This document shows, one piece after another, positions 950 to 17,817 of a DNA stretch of 30,345 nucleotides. Origin of the DNA: Myxococcales bacterium (GTDB lineage Bacteria > Myxococcota_A > UBA9042). Each line of letters begins with the position of its first letter. The stretch's first letter is position 1. The position numbers were made by a program, and so were the translations under genes. Where the stretch lies: NCBI GenBank assembly GCA_037441385.1, contig JBBISH010000083.1, positions 1 to 30,345 of the forward strand, read 5' to 3'. Below the pieces are notes generated by a model. That model saw only the letters and a list, made by a program, of their open reading frames with translations, did not search any database and had not been told where the DNA came from.

Positions 950-976
950 CCGCTGACGCTGCTGACGCTACTGACG
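950..976 (+). repeat. Three 9-bp-period repeats (core [G/A]CTGACG), iteron-like
   Basis: ccgctgacg ctgctgacg ctactgacg, overlapping the ATPase stop codon. Confidence 0.7.
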
Positions 977-2572
977 CCGTTCTGGGACTTCGCGGATGGC
1001 TCGAAGCTGGATCATGCGCTCGCCGCGACGACCGGTTCGCCGTCGTTCTACGGCAACGCCCTGTTCGCGTAGCGCCGGGGCCAGCACTTTCAGCCGGTCA
1101 GAGACGAAGCGCGCTCCCTTGTGGGCCAGTTGGCTGTAGCCATCACCTGGCAGTTGCACAGCGGCGGCGATGAACCCCGAGGCCGTTCCCGTCCACTCCT
1201 CGTCAGAATCTGCCAGCTTCAGCGCAACTTGTGCCACCAGGTCTCCTTCGAGCGTCGCCGTCAAACTCGCTTCCCGGTTGGCGCGGAGTGCCTGCTCGAA
1301 GGTCCCGCTCGCCCATAGCGCTGGCTCACAGGCCTGCATCCAATGCTCGAAGTCGGCCAGGCGTGACGGGGCATCGGCAAGGGGAGTCTCCTGCAGGTTC
1401 GCAAAGCCCACAGCGATGATGTCGAGCAATCCGCCCAGAATCAGGGGAGCTGCGGCCTTGAACTCTCTCCACAAATCGCGTTCTGTGCGACGCTCGCCGG
1501 GCTCGATCGGCTGCAGCTCGATCCGGAGGCTCCGGTCGGCAAGGTCAGGTCGGTCCACGAAGTCTGGAATCCCATTCAGGATCATTGGTCGCTTCGCCTG
1601 AAAGAGGGTCAGATCTGCGTCGCTGTAGCACTTGCGGGTAGCAAAGCCGCTACCAGTCGACAGCGTGCAGAGTGCGTCACTTTGATCGCGCGTCAGCCCA
1701 GATACGTTGTCGAAGGCCAGGACGTGGTAGGCGTTGGCAATGACCGCCAAGTCGCGCCGGTCAGTCGGCAGCGCAAGGAGAGGGGCCTCCGCCGGGCTGA
1801 CAAGCGCCAACAAGAAGCGAGTCGCCGTCGACTTTGCGGTTCCCTGCTCTCCGGACACTACAAGCACCGGCAATGCCCCTGCTGGTTGAGCCAGCGCGGC
1901 AAGCAGCCACGCGACCGTCAACACTCGATCGGGGCCCGACTTGATCGCGATGAATTTCCAGAGGTCGTCGACTATGCCGCCCCGTTTCGGCGTTGGCAGC
2001 GCCAGCATCGGTCGAGGCCTACGGAATCGCACAGGGGCGTCGGCGATGATCCGCCACCCCTCGCTGTCTACCCGCACCGTTTGCCAGGTCTCATCGCCCA
2101 GGTCGAGGTAGAGGCACCCGTCGACGCCAGCGGTACGCAGATGCACCTCATGTTGGAGGCCACCACGCTTGGCCAAGGCGCACAGGGTACGCGTGGCGGT
2201 GTTGAGCGCCTCGTCGCCTGGTGCCACTCCCTGGTTTCCGTAGTACTCGCCAGTCAGCCAGGACCGGAAATCGTCGCCATCGACCTGCATCGTTTCGCGG
2301 TGCCCCAGAACTTGAACGTCGGCGTACGCTTTCCAGCTGCGCCCGGGCGTGCAGAAGAACTGGCACCGCTGCTGAGCCAGTTTGACCAGGGCGTCCTGGG
2401 CTCGCTGGCGCTTGCCCTTCGACTTCCCCGCAACTTCTGAACCAACGTCAGCACCGTCAGCATCGTCAGCATCCGCCTGCGGCTGCGGCTCAGCGGGTGT
2501 GGCAAGGTCGAGCAAGTCTTCCGTGTCCGGAAGCGCCTTGCAGATCCTATCAGCATCAACTACATTGCTCAT
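968..2572 (-). CDS. P-loop ATPase / putative replicative helicase of phage-satellite type (534 aa)
   Basis: Walker A GEQGTAKS, Walker B-like VLAFDN, R-K-x-Y-x-D and ILNGI...DLADR motifs. Start reassigned to ATG 2572 (MSNVV) with upstream GGGAG. Confidence 0.8.
   Translation of the reverse strand: MSNVVDADRICKALPDTEDLLDLATPAEPQPQADADDADGADVGSEVAGKSKGKRQRAQDALVKLAQQRCQFFCTPGRSWKAYADVQVLGHRETMQVDGDDFRSWLTGEYYGNQGVAPGDEALNTATRTLCALAKRGGLQHEVHLRTAGVDGCLYLDLGDETWQTVRVDSEGWRIIADAPVRFRRPRPMLALPTPKRGGIVDDLWKFIAIKSGPDRVLTVAWLLAALAQPAGALPVLVVSGEQGTAKSTATRFLLALVSPAEAPLLALPTDRRDLAVIANAYHVLAFDNVSGLTRDQSDALCTLSTGSGFATRKCYSDADLTLFQAKRPMILNGIPDFVDRPDLADRSLRIELQPIEPGERRTERDLWREFKAAAPLILGGLLDIIAVGFANLQETPLADAPSRLADFEHWMQACEPALWASGTFEQALRANREASLTATLEGDLVAQVALKLADSDEEWTGTASGFIAAAVQLPGDGYSQLAHKGARFVSDRLKVLAPALREQGVAVERRRTGRRGERMIQLRAIREVPERRQ
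2446..2472 (-). repeat. Three 9-bp repeats CGTCAGCA[C/T], reverse complement of the 950-976 repeats
   Basis: cgtcagcac cgtcagcat cgtcagcat. Confidence 0.7.
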
Positions 2573-2646
2573 TGCTCTGCTCCCATGCGGGTGTACCGCA
2601 AACAGGCCAGCCAGCGTTCCAGCGCTGAGTTGGCCACTTTTTTCGC

Positions 2647-4197
2647 TCATGCGGCAATGCGACGGAAGGCGCACCCGCGGTCCTCGGCTCGACGTCGCCA
2701 TGCCCTGGCGGCTGCATCCCCGTTTGCGTTTGGAGGAGCGACGACCAGCACCTGCCACTCTTGCGGTACCAGCGCCATCAGTTCGTGTGTCGCGCTTCCA
2801 GGAAGGCTTCCAACCAAGGCGCCTCGAGCACTTGGCCGGCGCAATGCCAACTGCAGGTAGCGGTCCGGCCCCACGGCGACCGTCAGTAGCTTGCGGTCCG
2901 CACCCTCGACCAAGAAGTCAGGCCGAGGAGCGAGGACAGCTCCGGCGCATGTGTGCCAGCTCGGGGTCACATACGCGCGGTGGCCTGTTACCGGGTGCAC
3001 CAGCGCGCCGAGTGCGGCCACTTCGCGAAGGAGGCCGACAGCTCCCGGATCAGGGGCCCAGAGCGGCATCATCAGCCGATAGCCGGCGTCGTACCAGGAT
3101 TGCCGGTAGACGCGCGCCCAACTCGGCGCCGGGCACTCGGCCAAGCCGTCGCCGTTCCCGCGAGGCAGCGCGCCGGCAAGCTTGGACTGCCAGACCAACT
3201 GGGGGTCGGCACCTTGCCGTTCCAGCATGGCCGCCACGAGCGAGTCGCTGACTGGGGACTCGATTGACGCCAGCAAAGCGCGCACCTCGCTCTCGGGCGG
3301 AAACCGTCTGAGCGCTGGACGCACATGGCCTGGGAGCGGCAACCCAAGAAACTCGCAAAGGTCGGTGATCTTGCGCTCGCTGCAATGGCTGTGGAAGCAG
3401 TTGTAGTGAAGGCTGCCCTGCGGGCCCATGAGGACCGCCGAGTCGGAATAGCTTTGCGCGCCACCGCTGTGAGCGGACCGCCATGGGCATTCAATGGCGA
3501 ACTTGTCGGCGTTCAGCAGTCGAGGTGCGAGGCCCTTCGATTCGCATGCGCTCATCATCATTTTCAAGCTCTCGCCGGGAGTTCCGTCGACAACAAGGCG
3601 TGGGCGTTCGCCGCCCCGCTTCTTGGGGGCGGATCTCGGCGTGCGCAGGGCTGCCAGCTCGCTGGGCCCAATGATCGGCAAGCTCGATGCAGGAGGAATC
3701 GCGCCGGGGTCGTCGGGTGCGTGCACCCAGCGGTAGCGCAAGCCGGTATCTGGGTGAATCGAGCCGGGAAGGACGATGTTCGCGCGTGCGCCATGGAAAG
3801 CCAGCTCTTCATGGGTGCCAGGGGCGCCACGCTCAAGCTTCATTGTGGCTGCGCAGGGCACACCGGGCGCCCAGCGGTAGAACATGTGCCCACCATGGCC
3901 GCTGCCGCTGATGGTCCGCGCCGGTGTTGGTGGCAATATGGCTTGAGCACGCTGAAGGAAGTGGTCGCCGTCGCAGTCGAACGCGACCAGCGTATCGGCC
4001 ACGTTGGGATGTGGCCCGGTGATCAGGCCAATGTTTGACTCAGGCGCATAGCGCCAGGCGGCAACGACAGCTTCGACTTCGCAGTAGCAGTGCTGAGGCC
4101 AGGCGCACAGCACTGGGCTCTTCTTACGCGGCCTGAGTGGTTGAATCCGCCAGCCGGCGGCGAAGTAGGCGAGAGCCAACTCGGCAAGGGTCTTCAT
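2647..4197 (-). CDS. Bifunctional DNA primase/polymerase (Prim-Pol, AEP) with Zn-binding module
   Basis: N-terminal PLRPRKKSP...NIGLITG...FDCD...SGSGHGGHMFY...VLPGSIHP...YRW, then CPW..H...CFHSHC. ATGA overlap with the alpA stop. Confidence 0.85.
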   Translation of the reverse strand: MKTLAELALAYFAAGWRIQPLRPRKKSPVLCAWPQHCYCEVEAVVAAWRYAPESNIGLITGPHPNVADTLVAFDCDGDHFLQRAQAILPPTPARTISGSGHGGHMFYRWAPGVPCAATMKLERGAPGTHEELAFHGARANIVLPGSIHPDTGLRYRWVHAPDDPGAIPPASSLPIIGPSELAALRTPRSAPKKRGGERPRLVVDGTPGESLKMMMSACESKGLAPRLLNADKFAIECPWRSAHSGGAQSYSDSAVLMGPQGSLHYNCFHSHCSERKITDLCEFLGLPLPGHVRPALRRFPPESEVRALLASIESPVSDSLVAAMLERQGADPQLVWQSKLAGALPRGNGDGLAECPAPSWARVYRQSWYDAGYRLMMPLWAPDPGAVGLLREVAALGALVHPVTGHRAYVTPSWHTCAGAVLAPRPDFLVEGADRKLLTVAVGPDRYLQLALRRPSARGALVGSLPGSATHELMALVPQEWQVLVVAPPNANGDAAARAWRRRAEDRGCAFRRIAA

Positions 4198-4424
4198 GGC
4201 GCCCCCATTGCTTTCGCTGCGGCAGGACGCGGGGCATCAGCACAAGTGACGCTGACGGCGGGACGGGTACGAATCCAAGCATCGACCGCGTCGCGGTCCC
4301 AGGCAACAGCCCTGTCCCCGATGCGGCAGCGCTTGGGGAATCGGCCAGCGGCTTCGAGACGGTGGAGCGTGGTCTTGGACAGGCCGGTCAGGGCTTGGAC
4401 TTGAGGAAGACGAATCAGGGTCAT
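4194..4424 (-). CDS. alpA: AlpA-family regulator / excisionase
   Basis: LIRLPQVQALTGLSKTTLHRLEAAGRFPK...IGDRAVAW...VDAWI signature; GGGGAG RBS. Confidence 0.93.
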   Translation of the reverse strand: MTLIRLPQVQALTGLSKTTLHRLEAAGRFPKRCRIGDRAVAWDRDAVDAWIRTRPAVSVTCADAPRPAAAKAMGAP

Positions 4425-4570
4425 TGCGGCAACTCCCCGGCGCTGTTGACGCGCCAGCGAGTACCGTTATCCGCCTTGCCGTATCGTAACGAATAGCCCG
4501 GCAGTTGCAGCGCAACTCCCCGGAGGACGGCTGCACTCATATGAAATTGTATGGTAATGCGTGCCGGTGG

Positions 4571-5329
4571 TTATTTCTTCTTGCTCAACGTTAGCCTTGA
4601 CCCGCCGCCCTTGGATCGAGTCGGATTTGCGACTGTGGCGATGCGGTCGGCGGCCCCGCCTTTGCCTGCGGAGTGCCCAAATTGCAGGGAAAAATCAATA
4701 ACCTTCTGCTTCGCAACGTCCGTGTCTGGGTCGCTATGGTACCGAATCCACCCGCGAATCGCGGTCACAAGCTCTGCGGCGTGATTCCGATGCTGGGTGT
4801 CGAAGATTGCGGTAAGATCCTTCCAGTCAACGTTGTCGGGCAATTCCACGCCGGGCGGTGGCGCGTGCTGCAACTCATTTCGCCCCAAGGCCGCTACCAG
4901 GCAGGTGCGCCCGTGGTCGTCGAGATACAGGTCATCGCGCGTGACTTTCGCCATAGCCTCTGGTGGCCACTGCAATCCTTGAGTTCCGAAATGGAGCGGC
5001 CCATGTGCTTCCTCACCAGTTACTGTCCGCACATGCAAGACGTGGCAAACCCGACAAGCGTAGCCGAGATTTAGCGCCTCTGAACGGAGGCCAAAGGTCG
5101 GGCGGGAACCAGACTGATCAGAACCCGCACTCTGTGCCGGCGGAACTTGCCAATGCGCTGTTGCTGCCCAGCCGGAATACAGCCCACTTGTCCGGTTCGA
5201 TTTCCACAACAAGGCACTTTCGATCTGAAAATACAAAGGAATTCCAGCATCGCGCAGTTCATTGCAGACCGCGAGAAGTCCTGTTTGTACTTCATCCGCA
5301 ACAGCCCGGACCTTGTGGTACTTCGTCAT
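4571..5329 (-). CDS. Hypothetical accessory protein (252 aa) between int and alpA
   Basis: ATG 5329 overlaps the integrase TGA (ATGA), with GGGAG upstream. Visibly more AT-rich than its neighbours. Confidence 0.65.
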   Translation of the reverse strand: MTKYHKVRAVADEVQTGLLAVCNELRDAGIPLYFQIESALLWKSNRTSGLYSGWAATAHWQVPPAQSAGSDQSGSRPTFGLRSEALNLGYACRVCHVLHVRTVTGEEAHGPLHFGTQGLQWPPEAMAKVTRDDLYLDDHGRTCLVAALGRNELQHAPPPGVELPDNVDWKDLTAIFDTQHRNHAAELVTAIRGWIRYHSDPDTDVAKQKVIDFSLQFGHSAGKGGAADRIATVANPTRSKGGGSRLTLSKKK

Positions 5330-6564
5330 GCCGCTCCCTTCACGCCGACAACCACCAAGCCGTGCTTTGCGGCCGTCTCCAGAGCCGAGACCTTGCGCCC
5401 CCACCGCTCCAGGGCGTCGCGTTTCTCGGCGTCGTAGCTGTGCCGGTCGTAGATCGCCGTCACCGCTGCGTCGCTGTGGTTCAGCAGCTTGGACACCACC
5501 AGGCGCGAAACGCCCATGCCGGTCATGAGGGATGCAGCTGTGCGGCGCAGGTCGTGCGGCGTAAAGGCGTCAACGCCGAGGTGCGTCATGTTGCGCGCCA
5601 GCGCCCGCCCCACCGCAGTCTCGACCATGGGCTTGTCGCCGCGCGGCGAAGGAAAGACCGTCTCCCGGTCGGGATTGAGAGCCCGGGCCGCGCGCAGCAC
5701 GTCGACCGCCTGAGCAGACAGCGGCACGCGGTGCGACTTGCGATTCTTTGCCTTGGCCGCCGGGATGGTCCACCAGCCGGCTTCAAGGTCGATTTCGGAC
5801 CACCGAAGCGCCAGCACCTCACCGCAACGCTGCGCGGTCAGCAGCTGCAATCGCAGGGCCAACCGGCTTTCTTCGGCGAGTGCCGCGGTGGTGAGGTTGG
5901 TCAAGAAGGCCTGCAGCTCGGCCTCACTGAGCACACGGTCGCGCTGAGTCTCCTTGCCAGGCGCCTTGATGCCGCCGCAGGGGTTGGCCGGCACCAGGTC
6001 TTCGCTCATGCCCCAGTTGTAGATCTTGCGCAGCAGGGCCAGCGTGCGGTTGGCCTGCACCGGGGCGCCGCGCTCGACGATGCGCTTGAGCAGGGCGCGC
6101 ACATCCTTGCGTTCGATCGCTTCGGCCTTGTGCGGCCCCAGGACCGGGCGCAAGTCGTGAGCCAGCGTTCGTTCGTCGTTGGCTACAGACTTGGGCGCCT
6201 TGCGGTCGCGAGCGTAGTCCGCCAGGAATTGATCGGCCAGTTCGTTGAAGGTGGGTGCCTTGCGCTCGGCGACATGCGCCTGCACCAACTGGGCGCCAGG
6301 GTCGCGGCCGGCTTCGCGAGCCTGCATCGCCTCACCGAGAGCGGCGTGCGCCTGGGCTACCGACATTTCCGGGTATGAGCCCAGGGTCATCCGGCGGTCG
6401 CGGCCGTCGACGGTGTAGAGGTACTGCCACGCCTTGTGGCCGTTGGGGCTCACGCGAAGCGAAAGCGTGCCGTTACCGTGAGCGTTGGGCTCGCGCAGTT
6501 CGTAGCGGCTGGCTTGGGGCTTCAGGTTGCGCACTGTAGCGTCGCTGAATTTGACCGTGGGCAT
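5326..6564 (-). CDS. int: Tyrosine integrase, P4-like with N-terminal arm-binding domain
   Basis: N-terminal LRVSPNGHKAW.Y.Y...TLGSYPEMSVAQA; catalytic R (QRCGE), HDLRRT, LLNH and Y (IYDR). Confidence 0.95.
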   Translation of the reverse strand: MPTVKFSDATVRNLKPQASRYELREPNAHGNGTLSLRVSPNGHKAWQYLYTVDGRDRRMTLGSYPEMSVAQAHAALGEAMQAREAGRDPGAQLVQAHVAERKAPTFNELADQFLADYARDRKAPKSVANDERTLAHDLRPVLGPHKAEAIERKDVRALLKRIVERGAPVQANRTLALLRKIYNWGMSEDLVPANPCGGIKAPGKETQRDRVLSEAELQAFLTNLTTAALAEESRLALRLQLLTAQRCGEVLALRWSEIDLEAGWWTIPAAKAKNRKSHRVPLSAQAVDVLRAARALNPDRETVFPSPRGDKPMVETAVGRALARNMTHLGVDAFTPHDLRRTAASLMTGMGVSRLVVSKLLNHSDAAVTAIYDRHSYDAEKRDALERWGRKVSALETAAKHGLVVVGVKGAA

Positions 6565-6606
6565 GGGTGCCTCGCAGGGTAGGGCCGGGCGTCAGCTGGT
6601 CCGGTC

Positions 6607-6639
6607 GGGGTCGGATTGGGGTCGGATTGGGGTCGGAAT
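6607..6639 (+). repeat. Three tandem 11-bp repeats GGGGTCGGA[T/A]T, probable integrase arm-type sites
   Basis: ggggtcggatt ggggtcggatt ggggtcggaat, between the int start and the att core. Confidence 0.75.
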
Positions 6640-6771
6640 TCGACCCTGGCAGCGTCCGGATTCTCCCGGTGCTACCTGGGACCATACTAGGCGTAACATG
6701 CGTTCATTGCAACATGTTTTCTGAACTCTGATGGTGTGATTTGGGGCCTCGTGAATCGAAACGTTGATAGT

Positions 6772-6816
6772 TTCGTAATCAGCAGGTCCCGGGTTCAAGT
6801 CCCGGTGTTGGCTCCA
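6772..6816 (+). repeat. att site 1: 3' half of tRNA-Thr(CGT), not an intact tRNA
   Basis: Anticodon loop TTCGTAA, TCAGC, AGGTC, T-arm CCGGG-TTCAAGT-CCCGG, acceptor strand TGTTGGC-T-CCA. No D-arm or 5' acceptor strand upstream. Confidence 0.9.
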
Positions 6817-6977
6817 ACTACCTGTAATCAGCGACGTAGCGAGGCGGGCTTCACACCGGAGCCGTCCCCCGGCTGTCCCCCGAGCGCCGATCTGCTTGAA
6901 AGCATAGAAGACCATCCGCAGAAACGCATCAGCAGGTCCCGCCTGCTCATGCCTCCGCACCTACGTAGGTAATTTCT

Positions 6978-9343
6978 TTAGGAAAATCCAAGCGCCCGAT
7001 ACCCAGCCCGACGCCGCTCGAACATCCGCCGCAAGACGCCTACTTCCGCGTCCAGGTAGTCGTAGACGGCGATGTCGCGCTTGCCGGGCGACGTCCGCGT
7101 CAGCCGCCCAACGTACTGCACCAGCGTGCCGCGCCAGGAGATCGGCGCTGCCATGAACAGCGTGTCGAGCCTCGGATCATCAAAACCCTCGCCGACATAG
7201 CGGCCCGTCGCAACAAGGACGCGGGACGTGCCGTCGTCCGAACGCCAGGTCGCCAAAGCGTCCCTGCGCGCCACGGTCGACAGACGGCCATGCAGCTGCA
7301 CCGTGTGAACGCCCGATTGCGCAAGAAGGTCTGCAATTATCGAGACATGCTGGGTTCGCTGGGTCAGGACCAGCACACGTCGACCTGCCAGCGCCGCTGA
7401 ACGTATGTCGCCTGCGATCAAAGTGTTGCGAGCCGTGTCGGTCGCCAGCGCCGCGTAGATTTCCTGGATCGAGGCATCGCGCGGCAGCGCTTCCGGCAGC
7501 AGTCCCGTTGGCCGAACAATGAGTTGCCGGCTGCTGGCGTCGGGCTCGGCCTGTGCCAGCACTTGCCGCACGGGTCCCAACTGCATTTCGGCAATCGGAT
7601 GCAAGCCGTCGCGTCGCTTGAGCGTTGCGGTGAGGCCCGTCACGAACTGTGCCCGCACGGCATTCAGCACACGCTCGAACGACACCGCCGGCACGTGGTG
7701 GCACTCATCGACGATGACGTGACCGTAGGTGGCTACCACATCGTCGACCGCATCGCCTTTGACGAGGCTCTGCAACGTCGCAACGTCGATCCGACCGGTG
7801 ACCTTGCGCTTGCCGCCGGCGATGATGCCGATGTCGCTCAGGTTCACGCCCAGGAAAGCCGCGAGCCGAGCGCGCCATTGCTCGACCAGCGGCTGGGAAT
7901 GCACGAGAATCAAGGTGTTTCGTCGCCTTGCCGCCAACAGCGCCGCGCCCATCACCGTCTTGCCACTGCCCGGCGGCGCAACGAGGATTCCCATGTCGTG
8001 ATCGAGCATGGCGTCGACGGCGGCTCGCTGCGAGGGCGGAGTTCACCTTGGAAGTCAATGACAATCGGCTCGCCCGCCATGCGTTTATCGGTCACATGCA
8101 CTGGTATCTGCAACTCGGTAGCGAGACGCTCAACCGACGCGCGGCAGCCACGAGGCAAGGACACGTAATTGCCGTCGATTTCCGCGCACGCGACGATACG
8201 TGGCACTTGCGACGTCGGCAGACGCATCGCCTGTTTGCGCTGGAACTCGGGGTTCGCAAATGCAGCTAGGCGGCGCAGGCGGTCGATGAGCGCGGCAGGC
8301 AGTCCGTCTACTGCTACGAAGCACCGCTGCGCCAGAACCACGTCAATGGCTGCGGGAAGCGGCCCGAGCACGGCAATGGGCGTCGCGCGCGAAGGTTGCC
8401 GCAGCCATGGTTTCTCTTCGTCCGACTGCGACCACAACGGCAGTCCGAGCACCGCGTCGGTACGCTCCGCGTCGCGAACAAGTTCCTCAAGCCGGACCAC
8501 CGAAACGACCTGAATGCACGCCAGATACGCCCATTGGTCGCCAATCGGCGCGAACCTATCATCCACGAACACGCTGTTGCCCGCTGAGCGCGGTCCACGC
8601 TGCAACGGCAAGGCAATCAGGTTGCCGAATCCACCCTTGGGCATCATGTCCTGGCTTGGAAAGAGCCGGTCGTAGGATTTCAATGACAACTTCGGGTGCT
8701 TCGCGCAGGCGGCCGTCAACAGAAGCGAACCGAGCTTGCGGGCAGTCATTGCCGGCACCGGCTCGGCAAAGAAAATCCATGCGTGGGCGCCATTTCCCGA
8801 GCGCGAGCGTTCGACCGCCACATTGACGTTCCGGTCGCGCCCGGCTTGCGTGTAGGCCAACACGTCCTGCTGCCAGTCGTCCTCGTCGAAGTCCGCAGCG
8901 AGGAACGCACACGTTTCGTCGGGCTGCATCGCGTAGCCGCCCGCCACATGCTTTCCCTGCAAGTGATCTCGAATGACGGCGTCCGTCACGGGCAGAAATG
9001 CTTGCTGCGCACATTCGCCGCATTTCACCTTGGGCTTGCCGCAGATGCCGTCCCGCCATTCATTGCCGCAGACTGGCGCGTAGCCCTTCTTGCCGGACTT
9101 GGGGTTCTGCCAGAGCCGCGGCCATACGTCGGCTCGACCGCGAAACAGCCCGCGGAACAAGGCAACCTTCTCGGCGGGTGAGATCGGCGCTGGAATGCCG
9201 CCGCCGTCAGCCGAAAGGCCCGCAAGTCGGGCAGCCAACTCGGCAATCTCCGCGTCGATAGTCTGCAATGCCCGCACCGTCTCGTCGCGCCGCGTCTTGG
9301 CCTTGGCCAGCGTGGCCTCGAGTTCCAGACGATTGTCGTTCAT
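6978..9343 (-). pseudogene. TOTE-type AEP primase domain fused to SF2 (ResIII/DEAD-like) helicase, ~788 aa, split by a 1-bp frameshift near 8034-8036
   Basis: 5' ORF: coiled coil, Cys cluster, DFD, ERSRSGNGAHAW, YDRLFPSQD..GGFGNLIALPLQ. 3' ORF: APPGSGKT, DECHH, TAT, GEGFD, QYVGR. FQGELRP continues as QRAAVDAML in the adjacent frame. Confidence 0.85.
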
Positions 9344-10302
9344 CGCCGTTCGCCAAGTGCCCGCAGCCACTCGCGAACCAGCCGACAAGCTTCCTCCAGC
9401 GCGATTCGATGTCCCCAGAACATCGGCGCAATGGCCACATGGGCCGCCATGAGTTGCGCGCGCGACGATCCATCCGTCAGAACGAAGGCTTCATCTTCCG
9501 GCGACAGCGGCCCAGCGATCTGCCGCTGCTCAACCATGTCCACCAACGTAGCCAATAGGTCGATGCCGCCGGCGCCTTGCTCCTGTAGGTACAAGACAAT
9601 TCGCGCGGCATCCTCGTAGTGCCGGACGAACTCGTGGGGTCGCATCGGCGAGCGGTGGAAGCGTCGGCGGATCGCGTCGAGCTTCTCGATGAGCACCACG
9701 GCCGGGTGCAGGCACCGCACGGCGACTGGGCGATTGTCCACGAATTCGAGGAGTTGATTGCGATCGGCGAGCCAGTCATGCACGAAAGACGAGATGTTTC
9801 GCGCCTCGCACGGCGTGACCCGCGCATCGCCGACCTCGACCAGCACGTGCGGCCGCATCGTCGTCGGCAATTGGCCCATGAACTTGCCGGGATACTCGAC
9901 ATGGTACGACGCAGACCTGCCACGCGTATCGATTCCGCCCGGCGCCACCGCGACGTGTGCGCCTGGAATGCAAAGCGCGTCGGCCAGTTGCGTGCAAAAG
10001 GCGACGCGGCTGGCAACCGGACCCTTGTTCAAGCTCGTCCACGACGCGACGTCGGGCAGGCCGGCCACGCGGCCTGGCTTGATGCACAAGTCGATGTCTT
10101 CGGAGAATCGCTCGATGATGCCGTAGCCTTTCGACAATGCGGTGCCGCCTTTGAACCAGATATCGAGGCCGGTCTCGTGCAGCGCCCAGAGCGTGTGCGT
10201 GACCCAGTAGTCCTTCTCGACCAAGGCCGGCAAGATGCGCCGATGCGTCGCGACGGCTAGAATGAGCGCGGTGAAGTCTTCGTCTTCGTGGATGAATCTC
10301 AC
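9340..10302 (-). CDS. AbiEii/AbiGii-family nucleotidyltransferase toxin (320 aa)
   Basis: VEKDYWVT, FKGGTALSKGYGIIERFSEDIDL, EKL, RHYED. GTG start 10302 with GGAGG; GTGA/ATGA overlaps with both neighbours. Confidence 0.92.
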   Translation of the reverse strand: MRFIHEDEDFTALILAVATHRRILPALVEKDYWVTHTLWALHETGLDIWFKGGTALSKGYGIIERFSEDIDLCIKPGRVAGLPDVASWTSLNKGPVASRVAFCTQLADALCIPGAHVAVAPGGIDTRGRSASYHVEYPGKFMGQLPTTMRPHVLVEVGDARVTPCEARNISSFVHDWLADRNQLLEFVDNRPVAVRCLHPAVVLIEKLDAIRRRFHRSPMRPHEFVRHYEDAARIVLYLQEQGAGGIDLLATLVDMVEQRQIAGPLSPEDEAFVLTDGSSRAQLMAAHVAIAPMFWGHRIALEEACRLVREWLRALGERR

Positions 10303-10886
10303 GCAGCATCCTCCACCGCGCCGATGCACTGTCGCACAAGCGCCCGCGTCGCCTTGGTGCCGTAGCTCGCAGCCATCTCAAGCAGGATCGTGGCATTGAG
10401 CCGGCCGGCGCTCACCTCACGTCGCAAGCCGGCAGTCAGCACATCCCCGTCGACGCCCGCCATCGCCTGGTGTTCGATGAGGTCAATCGCGAACCACTCG
10501 CGCGGTGGCCTCTCGGGAAAAGCCACACGGCGCAAGAGGAACTTGCGGCCTGCCAAAATGAACTCACCGCTGCGCTTCTGGTTGTAGACGAGCGTCGCCG
10601 CGAACATTGCCGTGGCGCCGAGGCCCAAGGTGTTCCAGGCAGGCGGCCCGGTGACGACGAAGTGGTCCGTTTCGAGGAAGGCGCTCAGCAACTCTTCGTC
10701 TCGCGGCGGAATTTCCCCGAAGCGGCTCTGCGCCGGCGCAAGGTACAGGCCGCGCGCCAACTCACGCAGGCGGCCTTCGTCTACAAGGCGCTGCACGAGC
10801 CGCGCCGGGTTCCTGCCCCAGCGCGCGAACTGCTTCGTGCGGTAGACCCGGTTGGCTTCGAGTTCAGGGCGGGCGGCTGCGGGCAT
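10299..10886 (-). CDS. Putative AbiEi-like antitoxin / wHTH regulator (195 aa)
   Basis: ATG 10886 with GGAGG; LQRLVDEGRLRELARGLY-like wHTH motif (RLVQRLVDEGRLRELARGLY), AWNTLGL; directly upstream of and coupled to AbiEii. Confidence 0.78.
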   Translation of the reverse strand: MPAAARPELEANRVYRTKQFARWGRNPARLVQRLVDEGRLRELARGLYLAPAQSRFGEIPPRDEELLSAFLETDHFVVTGPPAWNTLGLGATAMFAATLVYNQKRSGEFILAGRKFLLRRVAFPERPPREWFAIDLIEHQAMAGVDGDVLTAGLRREVSAGRLNATILLEMAASYGTKATRALVRQCIGAVEDAA

Positions 10887-11084
10887 GGGCGTCCTCCGTT
10901 GTCGCGAGTTTCCCGGAAGGAAGATACAACTCGCCGCGCGAAGGTCAAGTGCGGCCGATTCGCGGGGGCGTGCGGTGCGCGCCGGAGCGGTCCCCCGCTT
11001 AACGGCAGCAGCAGAGGCCGTCGGAGGCGCGGGCGACGCGCGATGCTGCGCAAGCTTCGGAATTGTATAGCGTTTAGGCCGCGA

Positions 11085-11128
11085 TTCGTAATCAGCAGGT
11101 CCCGGGTTCAAGTCCCGGTGTTGGCTCC
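11085..11128 (+). repeat. att site 2: second copy of the tRNA-Thr(CGT) 3' half
   Basis: 44/44 identity with 6772-6815. Confidence 0.92.
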
Positions 11129-11421
11129 GAACTCCCTGAAACTACGGCATCGCGTCGGCAGGTACTTACCATCAGCGCGTCCCCCAGTCGTCCCCTCGCC
11201 AACAGAAAGCGTAGCCAAGTTCACGCACAAGTCGACCATCGAGATCAGCAGGTCCCCGCCGCGGCCTGGCGACGCTGTGCACGCGAATCCAGCGGCCGCA
11301 AGCCCTGGCGCAGTTGCCCTCAACCCAGACTTGACCCAACGCCGGTCCGTCCCGATTATTGCCATTGCAGCTTCCGGAGGAGCTCCGGCCGAAGCGCGAA
11401 TCCGTCCAGCAAAGGCCCCCA

Positions 11422-12048
11422 ATGCCCAGCAAGTACATCGATCTCGAAAAGCTCCGAGCGTATCTGCGCCATTTTCCCGCTGTGGATTTCGTTGTGTTCG
11501 TCGACCGTGCGCTGGATGAACTGTCCGATGAAGGTCTGGCGCGGGTCCTGCACGACTATGTCGGACTCGAGGAGTTCCGCCAGTCCGCACCGACCGAGGT
11601 ACCGCTCTTGAGTGCAGTCGAGGCCTTTCACGCGGACGCGTTGCGGGGCACGTTCTATGAGGACTTCGACGTTAATTCCAGAAACTACCTCGAGATGTCG
11701 CGCGGGACTCAGTACTTCCATGCGACGTTTGGGCGCCTGTTGCGCAGGTGCTTGGAGGCCGAGCGGGTTGGTCAGGAACCCGAACTCGCGCGCGCATTCG
11801 GGTTGTTGTTCGACTTGATGAAGCGGATTGATGGCGACGATAGGATCGTCTTCTACGCCGACGAGAGCGGGTCTTGGCAGCTTTGCGTCGTCTGGCCGGA
11901 AGTTTTCCAGCGTTGGTGCCCGTGTGTGGCCGCGACCACCACTTCAGCCGAATACCTTGCCGCGATGCGCGACATCATCGAGCTTCTGCCAAGCCACAGG
12001 CAAGACGAACTCGCCAAGATTATTGATTACTGGCAGCCAAAGTCGTGA
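11422..12048 (+). CDS. Hypothetical protein (208 aa, acidic, helical)
   Basis: MPSKYIDLEK... ORF with protein-like composition, including FYEDFDVNSRNY and FYADESGSWQ; no function recognised. Confidence 0.7.
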   Translation: MPSKYIDLEKLRAYLRHFPAVDFVVFVDRALDELSDEGLARVLHDYVGLEEFRQSAPTEVPLLSAVEAFHADALRGTFYEDFDVNSRNYLEMSRGTQYFHATFGRLLRRCLEAERVGQEPELARAFGLLFDLMKRIDGDDRIVFYADESGSWQLCVVWPEVFQRWCPCVAATTTSAEYLAAMRDIIELLPSHRQDELAKIIDYWQPKS

Positions 12049-12415
12049 TCCCCTTCTGGGCACACGCGAAGTCTCGCCCGGTCAGGACTTCTGCGCCAAA
12101 TCCCAAACTTCGGTACCCGGCCTTGCGCCGCTCGAACATCCGCCGCAACACAGCCACCTCGGCGTCGAGGTAGTCGTACACCACGATGTCGCGCTTTCCC
12201 GGTGACTCCCGCGTCAGTCGGCCTACGTATTGCACCAGCGTGCCGCGCCACGACACCGGCGACGCCATGACCAGCGTGTCGAGGAGCGGGTCGTCGAAGC
12301 CCTCGCCGACGTAGCGACCGGTTGCCAACAGCACGCGGCCGACGATGGCTTCCGGGTCACGCCAAGCCGCAAGTGCCTCTTTCCGCTGCTTGACCTTGAG
12401 TTTGCCGTGTAGCGA
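12020..12415 (-). pseudogene. 3' fragment of a paralogous SF2 helicase (helicase C-terminal domain only)
   Basis: LHGKL...RVLLATGRYVGEGFDDPLLDTL...QYVGRLTR..PGKRDI.VYDYLD...RRMFERR.AGYR aligns with ~6980-7300. Similarity stops near 12415 and motifs I-III are absent. Confidence 0.85.
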
Positions 12416-12606
12416 CCGCCCAATCTTCGCCCCCATGCGTGGTCTGACACAGTAGTGACACTCGCCGGCTGCGACGGGCCGTCGACGTCGGCCAGGTGTG
12501 GCAGACTCGTCGCGCCAGCGATCAAACCAACCCCGCACGCCCGATTCGCACTGGAGTGACTGGGCCTGGGCGCCCGCCTCGCGCTGCCGCGACCCGGAGG
12601 GATCTG

Positions 12607-15600
12607 ATGTTGCGATGCCTAGTTGTCCGCGCAGGTCTGGTGCCTTTCTGCGTCAGGCAGGGTCTAGCGGCGCTCGTAGGCCTGGTGCTGATCGCCGGTG
12701 CGTTGGGGTGTAGCTCGGACGGTCCTCCCGCCGCCGTGAAACAGTGCACCAGCCCTGCGGACTGCAAGCCGCCGACCGATCTTTGCCACGTCGCGGTGTG
12801 TCAGGTCGGCATCTGCTCGCAGCAGATCCTCGACGCCGCCAAAGCCTGCGCCGACGACAATCCGTGCACCCAGGATGGCTGCGACCCCAAAATCGGCTGC
12901 AGTCATGTTGCCGCACCGGGGCCTTGCAGCGACAACAACCTCTGCACGCAGGGCGATGCCTGCCAAGCGGGCGTGTGTCTGCCAGGCGCGGCCTCGACCT
13001 GCGACGACGGCGACTGGTGCACCGCAGACAAGTGCGACCCGCTGAACGGCTGCATCCACGCCGCGGGTGCCCTCGTCTGCAGCGACGGCAACCCGTGCAC
13101 CACCGACGCATGCAACCCCGCAACCGGCTGCACGTTCTCGCCAAATGCCAGCGCCTGCAGCGACGACAACGCTTGCACCATTGGCGACGCGTGCTCGGGC
13201 GGACTGTGCCTGCCCGGCGCCCAGACGGTGTGTGACGATCAGAACCCTTGCACCACAGAAAGTTGCGACCCAAAGCTCGGCTGCACCGCCCAACCCAACT
13301 CGCTGCCGTGCGACGACGGCTCGCAGTGCACGACCGGCGAGGTCTGCGCGGCCGGCGAGTGCGCTGGCGGCAAAGACCTGGTGTGCAGCGACGGCAACCC
13401 GTGCACCACGGACGTGTGCAACCCCGCAACTGGCTGCACGTTCTCGCCAAACACCAGCGCCTGCAGCGACGACAATGCGTGCACGATGGGCGACGCATGC
13501 TCGGGCGGCCTGTGCCTGCCCGGCGCCCAGACGGTGTGCGACGATCAGAACCCTTGCACCACAGATAGTTGCGACCCAAAGCTCGGCTGCACCGCCCAAC
13601 CCAACTCGCTGCCGTGCGACGACGGCTCGCTCTGCTCCCTGGGCGACGTGTGCAATCAGGGCAGTTGCGTGCCCGGCCAGCCCGCGAGCTGCGACGACGG
13701 GAATCCCTGCACCAACGACAGTTGTGAGCCGTCGCTGGGTTGCGCGCACGCGGCGAACACGCTGCCGTGCTCGGACAACAATGCCTGCACCCTGGGCGAC
13801 ACCTGCGCAGGCGGCGCGTGCGTACCCCTCCAACCCAGTACGTGCGACGACCAGAACCCGTGCACCAGCGAAAGCTGTGACCCGGCCACCGGTTGCAGCC
13901 AGTCGCCCAACACGCTCCCGTGCGACGACGGCAATGTCTGCACCGCGGCGGACGTGTGCAGCAAGGGCGCATGCGTGGCGGGCCCCGCCTTGCCGTGCAA
14001 CGACGGCAACCCGTGCACGGACGACGGTTGCGACAAGGTCGCGGGCTGCACCTTCCTGGGCAACACCCTGCTGTGCACGGACCAAAATGCCTGCACCGCG
14101 GGCGACATCTGCAGTCAGGGCAAGTGCACGTCGGGCGCCTTGATCAACTGCGACGATGGCAATCCTTGCACGGCCGATAGTTGCGATGGCGGCGCCGGTT
14201 GCGTGCACAACCCAACGCCCGTGGCGTGCGACGACGGCTCGGCCTGCACAGTCGGCGATGCGTGCGCAAACGGCACGTGTCAGCCCGGCAAACCGCTGGC
14301 CTGCAACGATGGCAACCCGTGCACAGACGACGCTTGCGACAAGGTCGCGGGCTGCGTGCTGTTATTCAACGCGGCGCCGTGCACGGACCAAAATGTCTGC
14401 ACAGCCGGGGACCACTGCCAAGCCGGCGGCTGCGTGCCCGGCGACCAGATTTCGTGCGACGACCAAAACCCGTGCACCCACGACCTTTGCGACGCCAAGC
14501 AAGGCTGCAGCCACGCGCCCAACGGGTTGGCGTGCGACGACGGCTCGGCATGCAGCCAGGGCGACACGTGCCAGGGCGGCCTGTGCAAACCTGGCGCCGC
14601 GCTGGCCTGCGCCGACGGCAACCCCTGCACCGACGACAGCTGCGACAAGGCCACCGGCTGTGTCCACACCAACAACACCGTGCCGTGCAGTGACAACAAC
14701 AGCTGCACCCAGGGCGACACCTGCGCGGGCGGCGTGTGCCAACCCCAAAAGCCAAGCGACTGCGACGACAAGAATCCGTGCACCACCGAAACATGTGACC
14801 CAGGTGTCGGCTGCACCAGCAAGAACAACAATCTGCCCTGCGACGATGGCAGTGTTTGCAGCGCCGGCGACACCTGCGCCAGCGGCACCTGCCAGGCGGG
14901 GAGCACCGTGTCCTGCAACGACGGCAATCCGTGCACAGACGATTCCTGCGACAAGCAAGCGGGTTGCGTCGTCCTGCCCAACGCGTCCACGTGCTCCGAC
15001 TCCAACGCCTGCACCGCCGGCGATAGCTGCAAGGGCGGCGCCTGCGTGCCCGGTTCTGCGCTGAACTGCAGCGACGGCAACTCGTGCACCACGGACACCT
15101 GCTCGGCCGGCACGGGCTGCCTGTTCGCGAACAATCCGTTGCCGTGCAGCGACGGCTCGGTGTGCACGGTGGGCGACGTGTGCTTGGCGGGCGCGTGCAG
15201 CGCCGGCAGCGCGGTCGTCTGCAACGATGGGAATCCGTGCACAGACGATTCGTGCGATAAGTTGCTCGGTTGCGTGCAGGTTGCCAATTCCGCACCGTGC
15301 GACGACGGCGACGGCTGTACCGCCCAAGACGCGTGCGCGGGCGGCAAGTGCCAAGGCGGCAGCGGCTGCGACAGCCATGCGCTGTGCACCCCAGGTGCCA
15401 AGGCGACCACGTGCGTGTGCCAACCGGGCTACACGGGCAGCGGCTTTAGCTGTGCCGACGTGGACGAATGTGCTGCTGGGACTGCGAGTTGCGGCCCCAA
15501 CATGGTCTGCAAGAACGTCCCCGGCTCGTACCAGTGCGTTTGCGCAAAGGACTACGCCGACTGCGACGGCACCGCCAGCACCGGCTGCGAGGCGCACGTG

Positions 15601-17817
15601 ACCGACGACGCGAGCCAGTGCGGTGGGTGCGGCAAGGTCTGCTCGTCCGCCCACATCGCCACTCCCAGCTGCCAGGCCGGGGTTTGTGCGGGAACATGCA
15701 GCCCTGGGTTTGCTGACTGCGACAGCAACAAGTTGTCCAACGGTTGCGAGACCGCCGTGGCGGCGGCCGACTCCAAGAACTGCGGCGGCTGCGGCGTGGC
15801 GTGCAGCGGTGGCAGCTATTGCGCCGCAGGGCAGTGCAAGGCCTGTTTGGGTGGGTTCCAGGCCAAGCAAGACCTTGCGGTGACGGGCCATGCGTTTGGG
15901 GTGGCCGCGGCGGATTTGGACGGCGACGGGGACGTCGACCTGGCCGCCGTGACCGATACGGGCAATGTGCTCAGCTTGCGGTTCGCTTTGGGCGGCGGGG
16001 CCTTTGGCGACGAAGTCACCTTCCCTGCGCTCGCCGGCACGCGCTACCTGGCCGTGCGCGACATGAACGGCGACGGCAAGTTGGACATTTTGGCGTCGTC
16101 CAACGCGGTGAACCAGATCAGTCTCTTCAAGAACAATGGCCTGGGCGGCTTTGCCACGCGGACCGACTTTGCAGTTGGCAGCTTGCCTTATGAACTGCGG
16201 GCCGCCGACCTGGACGGCAACGGCACGCAAGACGTGGTGGTTGGTCTGGAGGGCCTGAGCTCGGTGCGGGTGCTGCCGGGGGATGGCAGCGGAAACCTTT
16301 TGGCGGGCAAGGACTTCAGCGTCGCGACCGCCGGCCAATGGGGCGCCGCGGCGCCCGACGCGCTGGCCCTGGCGGACGTCAACGGCGACGGCAAGCTCGA
16401 CATCGTCTGCAGCAACACCAATGGCAGCAACGTCAGCCTGCTCTTGAACCAGGGCGGCGGCAACTTTGCGCCCCACCAGGATATCGCCGTTGGCGGCCAA
16501 CCGATGGCCCTGGAATTGGCCGACCTGGACAAGGACGGCAAGGTCGACTTGGTAGTGGCCAATCGCTACGACAAGACCCTGAGCGTCCTCAAGGGCAATG
16601 GCACGGGCAGCTTTGCCCCGCCGGTTGCGTACGCGACTGGAAACACGCCGATGTGGCGGCTGCAGGTCGCGGATCTGGACGCCGACGGCGACCTGGACGT
16701 GGCCGTGCCCAACTACGGGAGCAACACCGTCAGTCTGTTTGCGAACCACGGCGACGGCACTTTTGCTAGCAAGGTCGACGTGGCCGTGGGAGTCAACCCG
16801 GCCGCCATTGCAGCCGCCGACTTGGATGGCAACGGCTCGCCGGATTTGGCGGTGGCCAACGTGGGCGGTGGCCTCAGCATTCTGCGCTCGTGCAGCAGTG
16901 GCGAGCCCTTTGGCGCCAGCTTTGGCCGGCCGTGCGCCAGCCACGCCAACTGTGGGGTGGGTATGGAGTGTGTGCGATCGGGCTGCAGCGGACCGGGCGC
17001 CTGCCAATTCAAGCTGACCAGCTGCCCGCCCATGTCGGGCCCGGCGGTGTGCGGATGCGACGGCGTGACCTATCCCAGCTCCTGCGACGCGCGCCTGGCT
17101 GGCCAGGCCCCCAAGGCCAAGTGGGCCTGCGAAAGTCCACCGACCTCCAACACCTGCAAAGTGGGCGTCGCTGGGCAGTGTCAGTTCTTCCAGATTTGCT
17201 CGGGGCCGTGCGGCGGCGACGGCCAGTGCATGAGCAGCTTCATGACGTGCATGGACGTGGCGACCCTGGGGTGCGGCTGCGACGGCAAGACCTACGGCAA
17301 CGACTGCCAGGCCGTGGCCGGGGGGACGACGATCCCTGGCGCCTGTTCGATGGGGTGCAGCAGCGACTCGCAGTACCAACTCTGCGGGGGCAAGGGCTGC
17401 CTGGGCGGCGCTGGCGGCTGCCGAGGCATGGCCAACTACAGCAGCTACTGCATGCCGCCCCCAACCGAGTGCCCCGCGTTGGACGCCCCAGTCTGCGGGT
17501 GCGACAGCAAGACGTACGGCAACGCGTGCCTGGCCCTGGCGGCGGGCACTTCGGTCTACAAGCAAGGGCCTTGCCCCTCTGGCCTTCAGTTCTGCACGGT
17601 CGACAGCTCCGTGCCCAAGCCGGTCACTTGCCCGGCCGGCAGCTACTGCATGTCGCTGTCCTGCAACCCACCGTGGGGCCTGGGCGTCTGCCAGCCGGAC
17701 CCGACCAACTGCACCACCGACACCACGCCGGTCTGCGTCTGCGGCAACACCCTCAAGAACGCGTGCGAGGCCAAGCTCTGGGCGCCGTTGCCCATGACCG
17801 CCGGGGCCTGCAAGTAG
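12607..17817 (+). CDS. Giant Cys-rich surface lipoprotein (1736 aa): CDDxNPCTxDxC repeats, EGF/Ca-EGF, CGGCG repeats, 7 FG-GAP/VCBS repeats, 4 Kazal-like domains
   Basis: GGAGG then ATG 12607; hydrophobic leader with ALGC lipobox; DVDEC..C.NVPGSYQC; seven D-x-D/N-x-D/N-G-x-x-D motifs; CGCDG.TY...C motifs. Confidence 0.9.
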   Translation: MLRCLVVRAGLVPFCVRQGLAALVGLVLIAGALGCSSDGPPAAVKQCTSPADCKPPTDLCHVAVCQVGICSQQILDAAKACADDNPCTQDGCDPKIGCSHVAAPGPCSDNNLCTQGDACQAGVCLPGAASTCDDGDWCTADKCDPLNGCIHAAGALVCSDGNPCTTDACNPATGCTFSPNASACSDDNACTIGDACSGGLCLPGAQTVCDDQNPCTTESCDPKLGCTAQPNSLPCDDGSQCTTGEVCAAGECAGGKDLVCSDGNPCTTDVCNPATGCTFSPNTSACSDDNACTMGDACSGGLCLPGAQTVCDDQNPCTTDSCDPKLGCTAQPNSLPCDDGSLCSLGDVCNQGSCVPGQPASCDDGNPCTNDSCEPSLGCAHAANTLPCSDNNACTLGDTCAGGACVPLQPSTCDDQNPCTSESCDPATGCSQSPNTLPCDDGNVCTAADVCSKGACVAGPALPCNDGNPCTDDGCDKVAGCTFLGNTLLCTDQNACTAGDICSQGKCTSGALINCDDGNPCTADSCDGGAGCVHNPTPVACDDGSACTVGDACANGTCQPGKPLACNDGNPCTDDACDKVAGCVLLFNAAPCTDQNVCTAGDHCQAGGCVPGDQISCDDQNPCTHDLCDAKQGCSHAPNGLACDDGSACSQGDTCQGGLCKPGAALACADGNPCTDDSCDKATGCVHTNNTVPCSDNNSCTQGDTCAGGVCQPQKPSDCDDKNPCTTETCDPGVGCTSKNNNLPCDDGSVCSAGDTCASGTCQAGSTVSCNDGNPCTDDSCDKQAGCVVLPNASTCSDSNACTAGDSCKGGACVPGSALNCSDGNSCTTDTCSAGTGCLFANNPLPCSDGSVCTVGDVCLAGACSAGSAVVCNDGNPCTDDSCDKLLGCVQVANSAPCDDGDGCTAQDACAGGKCQGGSGCDSHALCTPGAKATTCVCQPGYTGSGFSCADVDECAAGTASCGPNMVCKNVPGSYQCVCAKDYADCDGTASTGCEAHVTDDASQCGGCGKVCSSAHIATPSCQAGVCAGTCSPGFADCDSNKLSNGCETAVAAADSKNCGGCGVACSGGSYCAAGQCKACLGGFQAKQDLAVTGHAFGVAAADLDGDGDVDLAAVTDTGNVLSLRFALGGGAFGDEVTFPALAGTRYLAVRDMNGDGKLDILASSNAVNQISLFKNNGLGGFATRTDFAVGSLPYELRAADLDGNGTQDVVVGLEGLSSVRVLPGDGSGNLLAGKDFSVATAGQWGAAAPDALALADVNGDGKLDIVCSNTNGSNVSLLLNQGGGNFAPHQDIAVGGQPMALELADLDKDGKVDLVVANRYDKTLSVLKGNGTGSFAPPVAYATGNTPMWRLQVADLDADGDLDVAVPNYGSNTVSLFANHGDGTFASKVDVAVGVNPAAIAAADLDGNGSPDLAVANVGGGLSILRSCSSGEPFGASFGRPCASHANCGVGMECVRSGCSGPGACQFKLTSCPPMSGPAVCGCDGVTYPSSCDARLAGQAPKAKWACESPPTSNTCKVGVAGQCQFFQICSGPCGGDGQCMSSFMTCMDVATLGCGCDGKTYGNDCQAVAGGTTIPGACSMGCSSDSQYQLCGGKGCLGGAGGCRGMANYSSYCMPPPTECPALDAPVCGCDSKTYGNACLALAAGTSVYKQGPCPSGLQFCTVDSSVPKPVTCPAGSYCMSLSCNPPWGLGVCQPDPTNCTTDTTPVCVCGNTLKNACEAKLWAPLPMTAGACK
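13075..13630 (+). repeat. Intragenic near-identical duplication, 306-bp period
   Basis: 13075-13324 vs 13381-13630 share long identical tracts. Confidence 0.9.

Follow-up and report, generated by a model that had tools for sequence, protein, structure and literature searches.

How does a tRNA gene come to be followed by small DNA units that are bounded by copies of its own 3' half and encode no integrase? This question is raised by contig JBBISH010000083.1 of a Myxococcales bacterium (GCA_037441385.1), on which two such copies enclose a 4.3-kb unit next to an integrase gene. The window analyzed here is the entire contig (C83, 30,345 bp), which comes from a short-read metagenome bin (assembly of 6.63 Mb in 221 contigs, 90.9% complete). 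An earlier description made from the letters alone, hereafter the sequence-only reading, had reported two identical 44-bp 3' halves of tRNA-Thr(CGT) starting at the anticodon loop, a 4.3-kb unit without a recombinase between them, one integrase just left of the first half, and a third, decayed unit beyond the second. All of this anatomy was recovered by repeat searches, family libraries, and alignments; the accompanying proposal of an integron-like array stood only in part and is weighed below. We favor, at a probability of about 0.6, the reading that elements accreted in tandem at the 3' end of tRNA-Thr(CGT), and that two units of the type known as cis-mobilizable elements (CIMEs), here called units 2 and 3, relied on an integrase that they do not themselves encode and are now decaying.

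The boundaries of the units are defined by an exact 44-bp direct repeat (family D15 in the repeat search of the window), the copies of which, attachment sites att1 and att2, are spaced 4313 bp apart. At up to 3 mismatches, the 44-mer occurs at just those two places in the whole assembly, and a reversed control pattern occurs nowhere. It corresponds to positions 32 to 75 of an intact tRNA-Thr(CGT) from a same-genus genome and therefore starts in the anticodon loop, which, with the T loop, is one of the tRNA sublocations typical of integration by tyrosine integrases. Of 19 loci scanned in relatives, ARAGORN found an intact tRNA-Thr(cgt) at 11, the other 8 having the half only. The sequence-only reading had placed the intact gene to the left of the window. 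ARAGORN found no intact tRNA in the window, and the 50 tRNAs of the whole assembly include tRNA-Thr only as (ggt) and (tgt); since the contig begins at base 1 of the window, the intact gene is off the assembly, to the left. An Rfam search at E <= 1 over positions 6300 to 12700 gave two sub-threshold matches and nothing else, and a 61% "third copy" of att at 20210 was rejected as a chance match.

The sequence left of att1 belongs to an element, here called element A, that is cut by the contig start and in which genes for integrase, AlpA, and Prim-Pol are present; in the part that the contig retains, no genes for capsid hijacking, packaging, or morphogenesis were seen. No further gene separates its tyrosine integrase (Int A) from att1, and Int A points away from that site. 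By Pfam, Int A is the sole tyrosine recombinase of the window and one of five PF00589 matches in the assembly. Homologous integrases (40 to 46% identity) in four relatives (G006, G024, G019, and G010) have their 5' ends 178 to 217 bp from a tRNA-Thr half and also read away from it, a geometry that the 207-bp spacer between Int A and att1 shares. Int A is therefore the terminal gene of the element on the left, and att1 is the attR of that element. Five matches to the 11-nt sequence GGGTCGGATT occur in the window, four of them clustered in this spacer and none near att2 or in the arms of unit 2, and each relative's integrase has its own 10- to 11-nt tandem repeats in the same spacer. These repeats would be arm sites to which the respective integrases bind.

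Unit 2, between the att copies, is a three-gene operon (AbiEi, AbiEii, and a primase of the AEP type fused to an SF2 helicase) lying entirely on the minus strand. PADLOC and Pfam both found AbiEi followed by AbiEii, the arrangement of an AbiE type IV toxin-antitoxin system, and AbiEi aligns over residues 1 to 190 with the copy on a metagenome contig described below (L120). The primase-helicase gene, in contrast to most of its listed relatives, is split into two open reading frames (ORFs): 101 of the 119 relatives listed are fusions of both domains of 757 to 837 aa. The closest of them (P0002, 805 aa) aligns over residues 2 to 447 with one ORF and over 456 to 802 with the other, which places a 1-nt frameshift at about 8030 to 8033; in another assembly made from the same run, no indel appears at this site. 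Among the ORFs of unit 2, no recombinase was found by Pfam, PADLOC, PHROGs, or NCBIfam, and tblastn with seven integrases over 6816 to 12600 detected no integrase scrap (best E = 0.059), a very permissive search giving noise only.

The sequences between the att copies and the genes, here termed P and P' arms, connect unit 2 with unit 3. Their P' arms have in common the blocks CGTCCCCC..GTCCCC and GAAAGC.TAG and the core-like 13-mer ATCAGCAGGTCCC, and the blocks of unit 2 are also kept in L120. The 13-mer lies 153 bp from each att and has four matches in the window against 0.06 expected. Over its first ~230 bp, unit 3 is homologous to the stretch right of att1. The P arm of unit 2, left of att2, shows no similarity to the P arm of element A at att1 (score of 16 against a shuffle mean of 18.1). 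The arms of units 2 and 3 carry GTCCCC[CT], a motif other than the repeats beside Int A, and if these motifs are arm-type sites, Int A is probably not the cognate integrase of either unit. Upstream of AbiEi stands a sigma-70-like site, recognized by its match to the consensus only.

Unit 3 holds the 3' remnant of a second primase-helicase gene, which is 62% identical in amino acids and 79% in nucleotides to the helicase of unit 2 (repeat family D10) and 84.8% identical in nucleotides to that of L120. Its other ORF has a single relative (41% identity) among 5.8 billion protein clusters. The remnant and the homologous arm bear out the claim of a decayed third unit, and a search of 12000 to 12800 for the att that would close it on the right gave nothing above chance. 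Because a gene related to the large repeat gene that follows directly adjoins an att half in G023, that gene is likely the native chromosomal flank, and unit 3 would therefore have lost its right end by deletion. No nucleotide similarity was found between the window and the native tRNA flanks in G001, G003, G005, and G010; the right boundary of the array thus rests on the comparison with G023 and on gene content. Coordinates are collected in Table 1.

Table 1. Features of the tRNA-Thr(CGT) locus, in window coordinates
Feature	Position	Strand	Matches and remarks
Element A: 596-aa ORF	968..2758	-	No match in Pfam, PADLOC, PHROGs, or NCBIfam
Element A: Prim-Pol (AEP-type) primase, 516 aa	2647..4197	-	PF09250, 1.6e-24; phrog_1156 (DNA primase), 5.7e-23
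Element A: AlpA-type excisionase/regulator	4194..4424	-	PF05930, 2.4e-14; phrog_2790 (excisionase and transcriptional regulator)
Element A: P4-like tyrosine integrase (Int A)	5326..6564	-	Arm-DNA-bind_3, Phage_int_M, and Phage_integrase; phrog_1, 9e-85
Tandem 11-nt repeats GGGTCGGATT, 3 to 4 copies	6608..6646	+	P arm of element A; putative arm-type integrase sites
att1	6772..6815	+	tRNA-Thr(CGT) positions 32 to 75; attR of element A and left boundary of unit 2
P' arm of unit 2	6816..6977	+	GTCCCCC at 6864 and 6875; second core-like 13-mer at 6928-6940
Unit 2: broken AEP-helicase gene	6978..9388	-	Helicase ORF 6978-8009 and primase ORF 7952-9388; PF22548 (AEP-TOTE), 3.3e-93; ResIII; Helicase_C
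Unit 2: AbiEii nucleotidyltransferase toxin	9340..10329	-	PF08843, 1.3e-18; PADLOC AbiEii, 4.3e-46
Unit 2: AbiEi antitoxin/regulator, 190 aa	10299..10871	-	PADLOC AbiEi, 2.2e-50; residues 81-263 of a long ORF
P arm of unit 2	10872..11084	+	GTCCCCC at 10990; promoter-like site 10948-10921 (minus strand)
att2	11085..11128	+	Second identical tRNA-Thr(CGT) 3' half
P' arm of unit 3	11129..11421	+	GTCCCC[CT] at 11179 and 11190; core-like 13-mer at 11244-11256
Unit 3: 208-aa near-orphan ORF	11422..12048	+	No family match in Pfam, PADLOC, PHROGs, or NCBIfam
Unit 3: 3' remnant of second AEP-helicase gene	12023..12433	-	Last ~137 codons; homologous to helicase residues ~239-342
Probable native chromosomal flank: 1773-aa Dicty_CTDC/FG-GAP repeat protein	12496..17817	+	Pfam

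The same tRNA is a hotspot in other genomes, as emerged when the locus was compared across relatives, which are remote from it in DNA sequence. With up to 3 mismatches allowed, the 44-mer is present in 18 of 41 genomes including the window's own (one copy in 11, two in 6, and three in 1), many copies standing at contig ends; 7 of the 18 thus have two or three copies. Cargo at this att in relatives includes GmrSD, Schlafen/AlbA_2-type genes, an AbiE pair, and a protein joining PLD, helicase, and DUF3427 domains. A counterpart of unit 2 is found on the metagenome contig L120 (6,088 bp), on which AbiEi, AbiEii, and an intact 805-aa AEP-helicase are followed 220 bp on by an att half matching at 47/47 bases. 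L120 is 70 to 74% identical to unit 2 in nucleotides, and beyond its att lies a DDE transposase rather than an integrase. On a second contig (L121), genes for a helix-turn-helix (HTH) protein, a PIN protein, and an AEP-helicase lie behind an att that has decayed, and a helicase scrap of 30 residues stands beside chromosomal genes. In the same-genus genome G005, tRNA-Met and a 43-nt repeat whose first base is tRNA position 33 enclose a unit of 4.05 kb. In G006, a 1086-aa PLD nuclease-ResIII helicase-DUF3427 protein stands right of the att half (L024:6903-10163); no second att was found in that genome, and the locus may be another decayed defense islet at the same tRNA.

To place unit 2 in a wider context, AEP-helicase genes were surveyed in 80 genome loci, kept from ~7000 stored stretches estimated to carry the gene family in the genome collection, and in 80 metagenome loci; all were ranked by similarity, and the loci are often cut by contig ends. 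The helicase part follows the primase part in 79 of the 80 genome loci. For 13 of the 160 loci, an intact tRNA was found no more than 1.5 kb from the gene; the 389 kb of flank contain 14 tRNAs, compared with about one per 130 kb in the genome of the window. In 22 of the 80 genome loci, the gene stands between exact repeats of 17 nt or more, which in 13 cases bound small units of 3.2 to 5.7 kb (L061, L068, L074, L078, L079, L080, L081, L082, L083, L094, L115, L117, and L119); for 9 of these 13, the repeat is the 3' part of the adjacent tRNA. Nine of the 80 metagenome loci show the same repeat-bounded pattern (5 distinct units). More than 10 targets are used: tRNA genes for Thr, Met, Phe, Pro, Ala, Gly, Leu, Ser, Glu, and Trp, plus 5S rRNA. 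The 5S rRNA case is a 3.5-kb unit between two 5S rRNA copies (L068:2228-5855; Rfam scores of 72 and 110 bits). In another locus (L188:8442-14190), the unit is bounded by a 41-nt repeat that corresponds to the 5' rather than the 3' half of tRNA-Trp, which is not the usual side for a repeat left by integration.

Absence of an integrase proved to be the rule among the units put through Pfam. When 16 small repeat-bounded units, unit 2 included, were put through Pfam, an integrase was found inside L094 alone, although the ORF sets were greedy picks of at least 70 to 90 aa, from which a split or very short recombinase could escape. The 15 without one (unit 2, G005, L061c, L078, L079, L080, L083, L115, L117, L119, L132, L136, L146, L165, and L188) keep exact repeats of 21 to 58 nt; the integrase content of L068, L074, L081, and L082 was assessed by tblastn with Int A only. 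The flanks of L078, L079, L115, L117, L119, and G005, searched to the locus ends, hold housekeeping genes and no integrase. L094 itself (5.6 kb, tRNA-Phe and a 38-nt repeat) reads AbiEi-AbiEii-AEP-helicase-Int, the order seen in unit 2 with an integrase added. Signs of decay also recur, as scraps or splits in L121, L165, and L146. In the latter two repeat-bounded units, the AEP-helicase gene is split into two ORFs (L165:9986-12474 and L146:5398-7847), and inactivation of this gene may be common.

The genes that accompany the primase-helicase include toxin-antitoxin and toxin-like kinds. By tblastn, AbiE pairs were found in 11 of the 80 genome loci, 8 of them directly upstream of the AEP-helicase on the same strand, and also in L120 and L165. 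The pairs in this position (window 6978-10871, L040, L043, L048, L053, L067, L086, L094, L116, L120, and L165) recur in distant bacteria and fall into three subfamilies, with no more than 26% identity between any two, which suggests that AbiEi, AbiEii, and the AEP-helicase form a functional three-gene module, one that is not among the PADLOC systems. Other partners are Fic/DOC (G024 and L132), HTH and PIN proteins (L121), ParDE (L061), HigB (L146), and a DUF4143 ATPase (L079 and L083). In a subset of loci, the gene immediately downstream of the AEP-helicase encodes a conserved protein that neither Pfam nor NCBIfam matches (L061:12734-13642, L083:12570-13355, and L119:12689-13876, with four to five more loci, among them L042, L052, L074, and L090); identity among copies is 48 to 84%.

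Tandem accretion with CIME-type units is the closest known frame into which these observations fit. CIMEs are defined as elements that keep attL and attR and are without integration or transfer genes (PMC5704250, PMC10201445), and a three-step model published for the Streptococcus elements ICESt1 and ICESt3 traces them to the integration of one element, its decay, and the arrival of another at that target (PMC5704250). Unit 2 resembles a CIME in its attL/attR flanks (identical over 44 bp, with arms on both sides), in the absence of integration, excision, and transfer genes, none of which the four family libraries found among its ORFs, and in that it shares its target, the 3' end of one tRNA gene, in tandem with element A, which bears Int and AlpA. 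It differs in that the partner is an island with a P4-like integrase, AlpA, and Prim-Pol rather than a Firmicutes integrative and conjugative or integrative and mobilizable element, in that the cargo is a toxin-antitoxin pair with an AEP primase-helicase and cis-mobilization is putative, and in that this type of unit recurs across phyla, often alone, with no integrase within 7 to 10 kb. One ICEfinder-based survey recorded not a single CIME (PMC10201445).

Two further systems share parts with the locus. TOTE stands for TPR, OB, TBP, Effector, as given in a paper that cites Aravind, Iyer et al. 2022 (PMC12458937). The primase domain of unit 2 matches the Pfam AEP-TOTE model at 3.3e-93, whereas no TPR, cold-shock (OB/CSD), or TBP gene is present in unit 2, where the partners are AbiEi and AbiEii. 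In the literature searched, which did not include the 2022 TOTE review, no published defense or mobility study of the toxin-antitoxin and AEP-helicase module was found. P4-like satellites carry defense hotspots, and element A resembles them, the phage-inducible chromosomal island (PICI)-like satellites, and small tRNA-integrated defense islands in its Int, AlpA, and AEP-type primase, in its integration at a tRNA anticodon loop, and in the defense cargo of its relatives. It is unlike them in that no capsid-hijacking or packaging genes are seen in the part on the contig, and it is at most a candidate satellite.

The anatomy, the homologies, and the recurrence in other genomes are observed; the order of events given here, the integrase responsible, and any present mobility are inferred. 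Tyrosine integrases crossing over in the anticodon loop would have inserted at least three elements in succession, with every insertion leaving a 44-bp copy of the tRNA 3' half. Element A extends from beyond the contig start to 6771 and ends at its own attR, and units 2 (6816-11084) and 3 (11129 to ~12433) would be two older islands; unit 2 is of the CIME type, with both att copies and both arms kept and the integrase absent, and unit 3 is a truncated relative of it. Both belong to a family of compact modules, a toxin-antitoxin or toxin-like partner with the fused AEP primase/SF2 helicase, and across many phyla such a module is often carried at the edges of islands integrated at tRNA genes. 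The integrase used for entry may have been carried once and then lost, or supplied by a partner, either within a composite or in trans. If a composite integrated and its integrase-bearing partner later excised alone, the unit would be left behind, a route that would cover both decay and integrase-less propagation. The frameshifted primase-helicase and the loss of the right end and att of unit 3 mark the present decay, and the intact AbiE pair may hold unit 2 in place as an addiction module.

Several points weigh against the accretion reading. Reads were available as assembled contigs from three runs of one study; a single run (X1, share of 0.99), a possible source, contains the stretch, and an independent assembly of that run (Logan contigs) breaks inside both att copies, so that the order of the units rests on the original assembler. 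The assembly includes neither the left end of element A nor the intact tRNA, so that there may be more units than those counted. Loss of an integrase is an assumption, since unit 2 shows no trace of one. Five of the six forward-strand occurrences of GTCCCC[CT] in the window fall in the arms of units 2 and 3 (6864, 6875, 10990, 11179, and 11190), a post hoc count in that the motif was defined from the arms and then counted, and integrase binding to it is conjectural. Finally, 15 integrase-less units out of 16 are many for independent losses, and dedicated units mobilized in trans would fit that ratio better.

A tentative proposal, which we hold to be possible but well short of probable, is that units combining a toxin-antitoxin or toxin-like partner with an AEP-helicase are a distinct and widespread class of integrase-less, att-bounded hitchhikers that borrow the tyrosine integrases of unrelated islands, either in trans or within composites, are left behind once the partner has gone, and pile up into tRNA arrays such as those of the window, L061, and L083. 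If so, they would be a counterpart, built on tRNA att sites, of cassette capture for conflict genes, much as the sequence-only reading had supposed, but would not be run by Int A specifically.

An opposite account, which we consider unlikely, is that of pure decay, in which units 2 and 3 are remnants of larger islands with a P4-like integrase at the attR end; internal deletions would have taken the integrase away, and the units would never have been mobile without it and would be immobile today. Such an island exists on contig C195 of G024, a member of the same family: at least 16 kb long, it bears an integrase, an intact 835-aa AEP-helicase at its tRNA-proximal end, Fic, two GmrSD, and a Schlafen-type gene, uninterrupted by any att; this contig stops at the same att as in the window, and another contig of G024 has the intact tRNA at its end. 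L094, with the same three genes and an integrase, can be read in the same way, as can the frameshift and the truncated unit 3, and the use of more than 10 targets fits cargo of many islands better than one self-contained integrase-less element. Deletion from such islands, however, has to contend with the failure of tblastn to find an integrase scrap in unit 2 or L120, with the two att copies and both arms that unit 2 keeps intact, and with an integrase-less tRNA-proximal end shared by three diverged lineages (unit 2, unit 3, and L120). Exact repeats of 21 to 58 nt around 15 of 16 units without an integrase argue against it as well.

Integrons consist of an integrase, IntI, with an attI site and mostly promoterless single-gene cassettes that are bounded by attC sites, imperfect inverted repeats that form hairpins, and are read from a common promoter. 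The sequence-only reading had likened the locus to such a platform, in which the adjacent Int and AlpA would excise, capture, and reorder att-bounded defense cassettes in trans. What stood of this is the tandem of integrase-less, att-bounded units with conflict genes, lacking a recombinase of their own and with one integrase at one end. The analogy itself was rejected. Int A is P4-like and scores 28 bits (cut-off of 265) and 19.4 bits (cut-off of 435) on the NCBIfam integron-integrase models; the boundaries are exact direct copies of a tRNA half, not attC hairpins, and no attI features are present; unit 2 is a set of three co-oriented genes with its own promoter-like site; and Int A belongs to a mobile element of its own, the one on the left, with arm motifs that differ from those of the units.

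Activity of such a platform, run by the neighboring Int and AlpA, is, in our estimate, quite improbable. Intact and adjacent Int and AlpA genes, att cores identical over 44 bp, and the attP-like look of att1, where the P arm of Int A meets the P' arm of unit 2, would speak for it, as would arrays with several att copies elsewhere. In L061:1258-17424, five 45- to 52-nt tRNA-Phe 3' halves, with no intact tRNA in the locus, bound four units (PIN/hydrolase/TetR; TIR-TPR and MazF; ParDE and AEP-helicase; small ORFs and an integrase), and in L083 the tRNA is accompanied by three att copies, with no integrase over 21 kb; the arm adjacent to att at tRNA-Phe is conserved between units with and without an integrase (L061, L083, and the integrase-bearing L094). 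The arm repeats of Int A, however, are absent from the arms of unit 2, which bear a different motif, homologues of Int A stand at the end of ordinary islands in four relatives, and the units are decaying. No circle and no empty att1/att2 junction was seen in the assembled contigs over 4500 to 13500, a form of the data in which rare variants are lost, so that this weighs neither for nor against excision. That the window merely chains pieces of different metagenome organisms through the shared tRNA half is highly improbable: the assembly breaks noted above, an att bin depth of 38.6 (raised by the tRNA genes of other organisms), and the identity of the 44-mer in several same-genus genomes would allow it, but the depths of the three pieces are nearly equal (10.2, 9.98, and 9.73), the G+C content is uniform (0.59 to 0.69), a 44-bp repeat is shorter than an ordinary read, and L120 independently has the unit beside the same att.

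On the accretion reading, the locus shows at base resolution how a tRNA hotspot can stockpile conflict genes through successive insertions, and what survives there are small att-bounded units with the cargo kept and the integrase absent. Units of this kind escape island finders keyed on integrases. The analysis also flags the toxin-antitoxin pair with an AEP primase/SF2 helicase as a module that recurs across phyla at the edges of tRNA islands.

The flank to the right of the array has features of its own. The protein encoded at 12496-17817 (plus strand) is very large and cysteine rich, with 16 Dicty_CTDC repeats (period of 153/306 nt) and FG-GAP repeats, and a second very large protein with similar CxxC-rich repeats is encoded at 25605-29699 on the minus strand.

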